Source of the DNA: a virus
Virus genome (UHGV): UHGV-0200285
Direction: 5' to 3' (one strand)
DNA length: 46,722 nt
In this document: positions 20,183-20,599 of the stretch, one piece after another
Numbering within the stretch: position 1 is the stretch's first letter
Layout: each line of letters begins with the position of its first letter
Translations under genes and position numbers: made by a program
Notes under the pieces: generated by a model
Told to the model about the DNA's origin: nothing
Seen by the model: the letters and a program-made list of their open reading frames with translations, nothing else
Database searches by the model: none

Positions 20183-20599
20183 TGTACAAATCGCAAAACA
20201 CCTCTGCTGCTTTGTACATTATGTACAAGCATATGTACAGATTTTTGATGAAAGCAACCTGATCAACTTAAAGTTACATGAAAGAATTTTCAATTAAAGA
20301 ACTCACATAACCAAATGTATTTAAATGAGTTATATAACTCAACCTCAATTAACTGAAAGGATTTTGAAAGAATAAAAGAGCTTTAAATTGGGCTTAATTA
20401 TTGGGGTGAGAAATAATTGCAAAGGTTCTTCTTTTCGCTACCTCTGCGGCCAAAAGGCTTGTCATAATTGTTGTCTCTTTGATTATGTACAATCATATGT
20501 ACAAAGAAAAATTCATGCCGCTGATTGTACATTTTGGAGGTATCAGAGCATAGCAGAACATGATCAGTAGGTGTATTTGTAGCCAAAGAACATTTGTAC
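20183..20599. repeat. cluster of eight TGTACA hexamers upstream of int (candidate attP arm/accessory sites)
   Basis: TGTACA at 20183, 20213, 20222, 20234, 20486, 20498, 20526, 20594; local spacings of 9-12 bp; AT-rich region. Confidence 0.45.

Follow-up and report, generated by a model that had tools for sequence, protein, structure and literature searches.

The interval 20174-20601 of the window, i.e., the 46,722-nt virus genome UHGV-0200285, is with a probability of about 80% the attP of a prfC-targeting temperate lambdoid phage, with the core at 20404-20417 and the TGTACA hexamers around it serving as arm sites bound by the phage integrase (Int). The core, the geometry of the sites, their conservation and the covariation of the motif with the integrase are observed in the compared sequences. 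That Int binds the TGTACA sites we infer from sequence, the site distribution being the one point that favours Int over the excisionase (Xis).

Hexamer cluster between int and the dinI-like gene

The earlier note on this DNA listed eight TGTACA copies upstream of the integrase start, and all of them are present at the listed positions (20183, 20213, 20222, 20234, 20486, 20498, 20526 and 20595) upstream of the start of int (18938-20173, minus strand). The spacings implied by the positions given there, 9/12 bp for 20213/20222/20234 and 12 bp for 20486/20498, are also correct. The cluster was said to span 20183-20599; its start holds and its end does not, as the final copy finishes one base further, at 20600. 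All eight copies fall within the spacer between int and the dinI-like gene (20174-20684, 511 bp, 67% A+T), for which 0.17 copies are expected from base composition and 0.29 from first-order Markov simulation, in agreement with the assertion that chance would give well under one. The highest count among 20,000 spacers simulated by the first-order Markov model was 4, and the remaining 46.2 kb of the window contain just 7 additional copies. The GTAC tetranucleotide shows the same restriction: 8/8 occurrences in the spacer lie inside the hexamers, with 1.2 occurrences expected from the remainder of the window. No copies of TGTACA with one mismatch were found in either arm.

The hexamers are distributed on both sides of the core, four at a distance of 165-221 bp on the side of int and four at 69-178 bp on the side of the dinI-like gene. 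The arm next to int would be called P' in lambda terms and the opposite one P; here the arms are called int-side and dinI-side, and core-relative positions are counted in the int direction from the first base of the core (Table 1). The arm-site unit is approximately TTGTACAT(AA), about 8-10 bp long with TGTACA at its centre, and with flanks included TTGTACAT is present on one strand in 7/8 sites, the site at 20233 reading CTGTACAT and that at 20182 being the palindrome TTGTACAA. Either arm consists of one direct pair spaced by 12 bp accompanied by inverted copies. The pairs are part of a 22-nt module, ATTATGTACAAKCATATGTACA, which occurs once per cluster and is 95% identical between the arms, and a repeat search showed that all repeat families linking both arms contain the hexamer, except one chance-looking 11-nt pair. 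The ATG of int (20173) is located 231 bp from the core; transcription of int runs away from the core, and the arm sites are at -15 to -66. As this ATG lies at +244 in core-relative terms, the +229 site covers the ribosome-binding site of int.

Table 1. Features of the attP region, of the recombination genes and of the lepA-type attP sequences compared with it (window coordinates unless an accession is given).
Feature	Coordinates	Strand	Core-relative position	Remarks
attP core (crossover segment), 14 bp, GGGTGAGAAATAAT; minus strand ATTATTTCTCACCC	20404-20417			junctions and annotated duplication
Int-side arm site 4, TTGTACAA, palindromic	20182-20189		+229 (inverted copy)	over int ribosome-binding site, 15 nt before ATG
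Int-side arm site 3, TTGTACAT	20212-20219	+	+199 (inverted copy)	inverted relative to pair
Int-side direct pair, 12 bp apart, minus strand cTGTACATatgcTTGTACAT	20221-20240	-	+178, +190	reads toward int
26-nt imperfect direct repeat, core TGAAAGRATTTT	20262-20287 and 20348-20373			between int-side sites and attP core
Phage-borne substitute prfC 5' end (prfC'), 16 codons, MTSLLAAEVAKRRTFA	20418-20465	-		translation; ATG at 20465
DinI-side direct pair, 12 bp apart, minus strand TTGTACATatgaTTGTACAT	20485-20504	-	-86, -74	reads toward int; 26-38 nt before prfC' ATG
DinI-side arm site, TTGTACAT	20525-20532	+	-114 (inverted copy)	inverted relative to pair; inverted repeat with 20485-20495
Outermost dinI-side arm site, TTGTACAT	20594-20601	+	-183 (inverted copy)	inverted relative to pair
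Tyrosine integrase (int), 411 aa	18938-20173	-		ORF, Pfam, PDB, PHROG
Excisionase (recombination directionality factor, RDF; xis), 64 aa	16354-16548	+		PHROG 1553, E 2.6e-34; not adjacent to int
dinI-like gene	20685-20933	+		
lepA-type attP, L205	NZ_CP083846, 1073-1500			
lepA-type attP, L206	CP002155, 859-1500			
lepA-type attP, L012	KY271399, 1-229			

Several other features surround the cluster. Tandem matches to the LexA box, CTGTCTATTCATACAG (20626-20641) and CTGTATACAAACACAG (20654-20669), precede the dinI-like gene directly and adjoin a promoter-like TTGACA-18-AAAAAT site, so judged from sequence an SOS-controlled dinI gene looks to be abutting attP. LexA binding to the hexamers themselves was considered and rejected, as these are not of the form CTGT-N8-ACAG, the genuine LexA boxes being located at 20626-20669. 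Between xis and int the window encodes a 646-aa protein with DUF4365 and TPR (16835-18775, plus strand), for which phage 2H10 has a different gene; its matches to PADLOC candidate-defence models are only weak (PDC-M02A, E 1.7e-6), and it may be a defence cargo gene. A 196-aa ORF (22156-22746, plus strand) is found where 2H10 annotates a DNA invertase, beside the tail-fibre genes (23310-24350, minus strand), which suggests an invertible host-range segment.

The attP core and its junctions with prfC

The earlier note considered the attP core to lie probably in or next to 20180-20620 and proposed to locate it by comparison with the attL and attR of integrated copies. The prophage junctions put the crossover core at 20404-20417, inside that interval, and the only sequence that attP, attL and attR have in common is ATTATTTCTCACCC. 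In linear Stx1a/Stx2c prophage records that contain host flanks, one end agrees with the window over 20100 to ~20417 and the opposite end over 20404-20700, and the 14-bp "duplication due to insertion" annotated in LC727876 maps to 20404-20417. In complete E. coli genomes, the lysogen matches to 20300-20700 start exactly at 20404, and the host flank is yjjG-prfC in 5425/5426 E. coli genomes. The site is uninterrupted in only one of the E. coli records, a circular "plasmid" of 33.7 kb, evidently the genome of a free phage, and it is also uninterrupted in the Escherichia phages 2H10, cdtI and Ayreon, in which the region is 96-98% identical. The prophage junctions and lysogen matches thus indicate that the window represents a temperate lambdoid phage in the attP (unintegrated) form.

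The core corresponds to prfC codons 17-21 (I-I-S-H-P), so the insertion occurs inside the 5' coding end of prfC, a published integration locus for these Stx phages (PMC10132054). The phage carries 16 codons of its own that run in frame into the core and are fused to host prfC at the dinI-side junction; in the lysogen NZ_CP149565, PGAP annotates a full-length prfC CDS starting at the equivalent of 20465. It follows from its position that the dinI-side arm would provide both a substitute promoter region and the 16 codons keeping prfC intact in the lysogen.

Integration leaves the native prfC promoter and the first 16 codons at the int-side junction, facing the arm, toward int. The orphan prfC ORF created there stops 6 nt past the core (…ISHPNN followed by the stop; window 20380-20420, minus strand; contig L001, 2780-2870). 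Read-through of the orphaned prfC promoter into int is conceivable, as there is no terminator-like site between the core and int. A search of the minus strand for sigma-70 promoters of int and prfC' gave none with at least 9/12 matches, and the relaxed scan yielded 8/12 matches only. A 7-bp inverted repeat, AATTATT/AATAATT (20396-20402 and 20412-20418), surrounds GGGGTGAGA and was considered as a set of core-type Int sites; this assignment was dropped because the repeat is unconserved in the Trabulsiella, Pantoea and L176 junctions.

Conservation of the probable arm sites and their covariation with the integrase

The relatives of Int came from three sources: species-representative genomes, phage and plasmid collections, and contigs encoding further homologues. 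The int-side comparison covered E. coli together with Trabulsiella, Pantoea, Morganella, Acinetobacter, Moraxella and several MAGs, the latter relatives having an Int 41-84% identical. Wherever upstream DNA was available (Int 41-100% identical), a (T)GTACA(TA) pair spaced by 12 bp and directed toward int is present 24-73 bp before the int ATG, in DNA that is otherwise unalignable among the relatives. An inverted copy over the ribosome-binding site, at -15 to -22 from the int ATG, is found in most relatives (Int 46-100% identical), and int-side site 3 (20212) is kept where Int is at least 66% identical. A comparison of 26 distinct int-side arms (Int 66-100% identical) left the core and the four hexamers as the invariant stretches.

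The motif itself is not constant. Two marine relatives (Int 48-50% identical) have the variants AAGTACCAA and AAGTACAAA, and an element integrated beside amiD (Int 52% identical) has RAGTACATAA, so the motif covaries with the integrase as TGTACA, AGTACA/AGTACC or, in the lepA-targeting phages described below, TGTCCA. This drift across the relatives indicates that the motif follows the integrase gene and not the target site. The contigs of seven Int homologues represent integrated forms only, with no attP form among them: three elements are inserted at prfC and two next to amiD, another has an unidentified site, and the last contig is too short to tell. Searching viral contigs with the Trabulsiella Int or the Int alignment likewise returned int-side (attL) junctions only, nearly all of the E. 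coli type.

The dinI-side arm was approached by scanning viral contigs for sequences encoding IISHPDAGKT, which finds prfC 5' ends (attR or native) irrespective of the motif. GTAC at exactly -85 and -73, the positions that correspond to the hexamer pair at -86/-74, is present in 11/19 of these 5' ends, and these 11 form six sequence families with differing substitute N-termini; for one independent sequence, GTAC would occupy two fixed positions by chance with a probability of ~1.5e-5. The other 8/19 lack GTAC in the 100 bp preceding the core, save a chance tetramer at -11 in the coding sequence of L201, and look like native prfC. The outer dinI-side sites are less widely kept: 20525 is retained in the E. 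coli-type attR ends L196, L198 and L202, and 20594 is retained in L196 despite different flanks, and the other prfC-targeting families have no equivalents of the two at fixed positions. One of these eight, the phage-like contig L185 (IMGVR_UViG_3300038708_000015, ~4150-4435), ends at the prfC 5' end MNNFINEINKRRTFA with no upstream GTAC pair and represents either native prfC beside a prophage or an element that uses prfC with a different integrase.

A further view of the geometry is provided by circular phage genomes from Enterobacter and Edwardsiella, whose Int is 44-46% identical and of the same type as that of Klebsiella phage 5 LV-2017 (the record of the latter lacks the far junction). The lepA-type attP (Table 1) carries the lepA 5' end (MKNIRNFSIIAHID) with the first 14 lepA codons. 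When its core, ATCATTGCTCAC, is aligned with ATTATTTCTCAC, TGTCCA is found at -86/-74, and on the int side direct TGTCCA copies at +148 and +160 are followed by inverted copies at +176 and +200. An inverted copy, TGGACA, corresponds to int-side site 3 of the window (20212). TGTCCA is not palindromic and thus confirms the orientations inferred for the window sites. The N-domains of the prfC-type and lepA-type Int proteins differ at several positions of a predicted beta-hairpin; these differences are consistent with altered arm recognition, a comparison confounded by phylogeny. From the two targets, the integrase subfamily seems to be directed at the P-loop-coding starts of translational GTPase genes.

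Proposed binding of the sites and relation to known systems

Int has the domain composition expected of a protein that holds arm and core sites at once. Pfam assigns Arm-DNA-bind_3 to residues 3-90 (E 2e-16), followed by Phage_int_M and Phage_integrase (E 1.2e-17), the N-domain has PDB sequence matches to the CP4-like integrase N-domains 3jtz/3rmp/3ju0, and the protein belongs to PHROG 1 (integrase); the NCBIfam search with Int returned no specific family. The flanking of the core on both sides, the conserved core-relative positions, the covariation of motif and integrase and the presence of this arm-binding domain support the original suggestion that the hexamers are arm-type integrase or excisionase sites. 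In the mechanism we propose, the Arm-DNA-bind_3 N-domain would hold the TTGTACAT[AA] arm sites and the C-terminal domains would hold the core, while strand exchange in the 14-bp core would insert the phage into the 5' end of host prfC. The direct pair and the inverted copies in each arm would allow Int molecules to bridge arm and core and to build the recombination complex, presumably a standard heterobivalent intasome in which the excisionase sets the direction. Moreover, the int leader contains the int-side sites, one of them covering the ribosome-binding site, and from this placement autorepression by Int is probable. Such autoregulation through the int-side arm sites would have a precedent in KplE1 IntS, whose arm sites inside attL overlap the promoter and lead to negative autoregulation (PMC2951348).

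The other candidate binder is the excisionase. It is encoded 2.4 kb from int on the opposite strand, has weak HTH_17/MerR matches, and is the counterpart of 2H10 gp30, which is annotated as 'excisionase' at the equivalent place. If this HTH/MerR-like RDF bound the TGTACA sites, the arm sites of Int would have to lie elsewhere. RDFs commonly bind direct repeats placed close together, as the hexamer pairs are, and a homologous excisionase was found with every related integrase, so that the motif travels with Xis too; as all these Xis proteins are homologous, co-occurrence cannot separate Int from Xis as the binder. It is the distribution of the sites that makes this alternative improbable. In lambda, RDF sites are normally limited to one arm beside the core, while the hexamers occupy both arms at 69-221 bp from it, and the arms have no other common repeat to serve the arm-binding domain of Int. 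The same limitation of RDF sites to one arm beside the core is reported for KplE1 (PMC2951348).

The one-arm repeat at 20262-20373 is a better Xis candidate than the hexamers, and we regard it as a candidate for excisionase or host-factor sites. It is kept as two copies of AAYTCCTTTCA in Trabulsiella, Pantoea and L176. In L178 (2781-2930), where Xis is 73% identical, two copies of CCAACTATTTGCAAYTACC are found in place of the two copies of AAYTCCTTTCA. Within 20174-20684, which is A+T-rich, the IHF consensus WATCAANNNNTTR has no match within one mismatch; IHF sites are not universal in the attP of heterobivalent tyrosine integrases.

A slightly less probable alternative, and a poor one, gives the hexamers no part in recombination and has them serve transcription of int and of the substitute prfC 5' end, as operators or promoter elements recognised by RNA polymerase or by a regulator of phage or host origin. 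Its attraction lies in the placement of the pair, which in both arms is 26-66 nt upstream of an ATG (int or prfC') and reads toward it, and in the CATAAT of the promoter-proximal copy, which agrees with the -10 hexamer at 5/6 positions. A spacing of 12 bp cannot make a -35/-10 pair, however, all minus-strand promoters score below 9/12, and the lepA-type attP keeps the geometry with TGTCCA, which is unlike any promoter hexamer. The position of the pair is fixed to the core (-86/-74), whereas its distance to the int ATG is variable (24-73 bp). Furthermore, the motif follows the integrase across unrelated phage backbones and hosts, which makes a shared regulator unlikely. That the cluster is a functionless by-product of a local duplication of the 22-nt segment is barely credible: the module is 95% identical between the arms, but the hexamers are invariant islands in diverged arms, and their core-relative positions are repeated exactly in six prfC arm families unrelated to one another as well as, with TGTCCA, in the lepA-type sites.

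A broader picture can be sketched, which we put forward as a tentative model with the odds against it. A widespread gammaproteobacterial Int subfamily may act at the P-loop 5' ends of translational GTPase genes (prfC AIISHP; lepA SIIAHID), use a rigid -86/-74 pair and substitute the 5' ends of its targets; the arm sites might at the same time be operators through which Int levels tune int and the chimeric GTPase gene, and the orphaned prfC promoter might read into int.

The practical value of the analysis is a base-level map of attP (core, arm sites, their orientation and spacing) for a common group of E. coli prophages, carried by several hundred of 5,426 complete E. coli genomes and including the cdtI and Stx1a/Stx2c toxin phages. 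With this map the prophages can be delimited exactly and minimal attP cassettes designed, and since the lepA-type arm motif is one base apart (TGTACA vs. TGTCCA), specificity-swap tests are possible. The closest known phages, cdtI, 2H10, Ayreon and the CC119 Stx1a/Stx2c phages, have an Int 97-98% identical and an attP region 93-99% identical to those of the window. prfC is already listed as the integration locus of prfC-integrated lambdoid E. coli prophages (PMC10132054), and the records and papers on E. coli prfC prophages give the locus and the 14-bp duplication only. A full-text literature search retrieved no paper linking TGTACA to integrase arm sites and no description of arm sites for these phages.

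The overall organisation resembles that of lambda attP in the heterobivalent tyrosine integrase, the short core, the repeated arm-type sites on both sides over ~420 bp, the separate excisionase and the arm direct repeats about one helical turn apart. Unlike in lambda, the N-domain of the window Int is of the P4/CP4 type (Arm-DNA-bind_3), int is transcribed from inside the arm away from the core, xis is 2.4 kb off on the other strand, the IHF consensus match is missing, and integration is directed at the 5' coding end of a protein gene. In satellite phage P4 (Int/Vis), the int upstream region is in the int-proximal arm, arm sites overlie the promoter or leader, int and the RDF gene are uncoupled, and integration occurs in a tRNA gene. 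The IntS-TorI system of KplE1/HK620 is similar to the window in that the int upstream region lies inside the int-proximal arm, sites overlie the promoter or leader, and the RDF gene is not coupled to int. The consequence in KplE1 is negative autoregulation by Int and the RDF (PMC2951348). Both KplE1 and P4, however, insert at tRNA genes and have different arm motifs, the KplE1 sites sharing TAAA. No SXT name appears among the 120 Int homologues listed. The SXT/R391 elements act on prfC in a similar way: the window phage, a lambdoid phage and not a conjugative element, likewise provides its own version of the first 16 prfC codons and of the region upstream. The attP described here belongs to a textbook class and implies no new mechanism, and the phage mends the gene interrupted by its insertion in the manner of SXT/R391.
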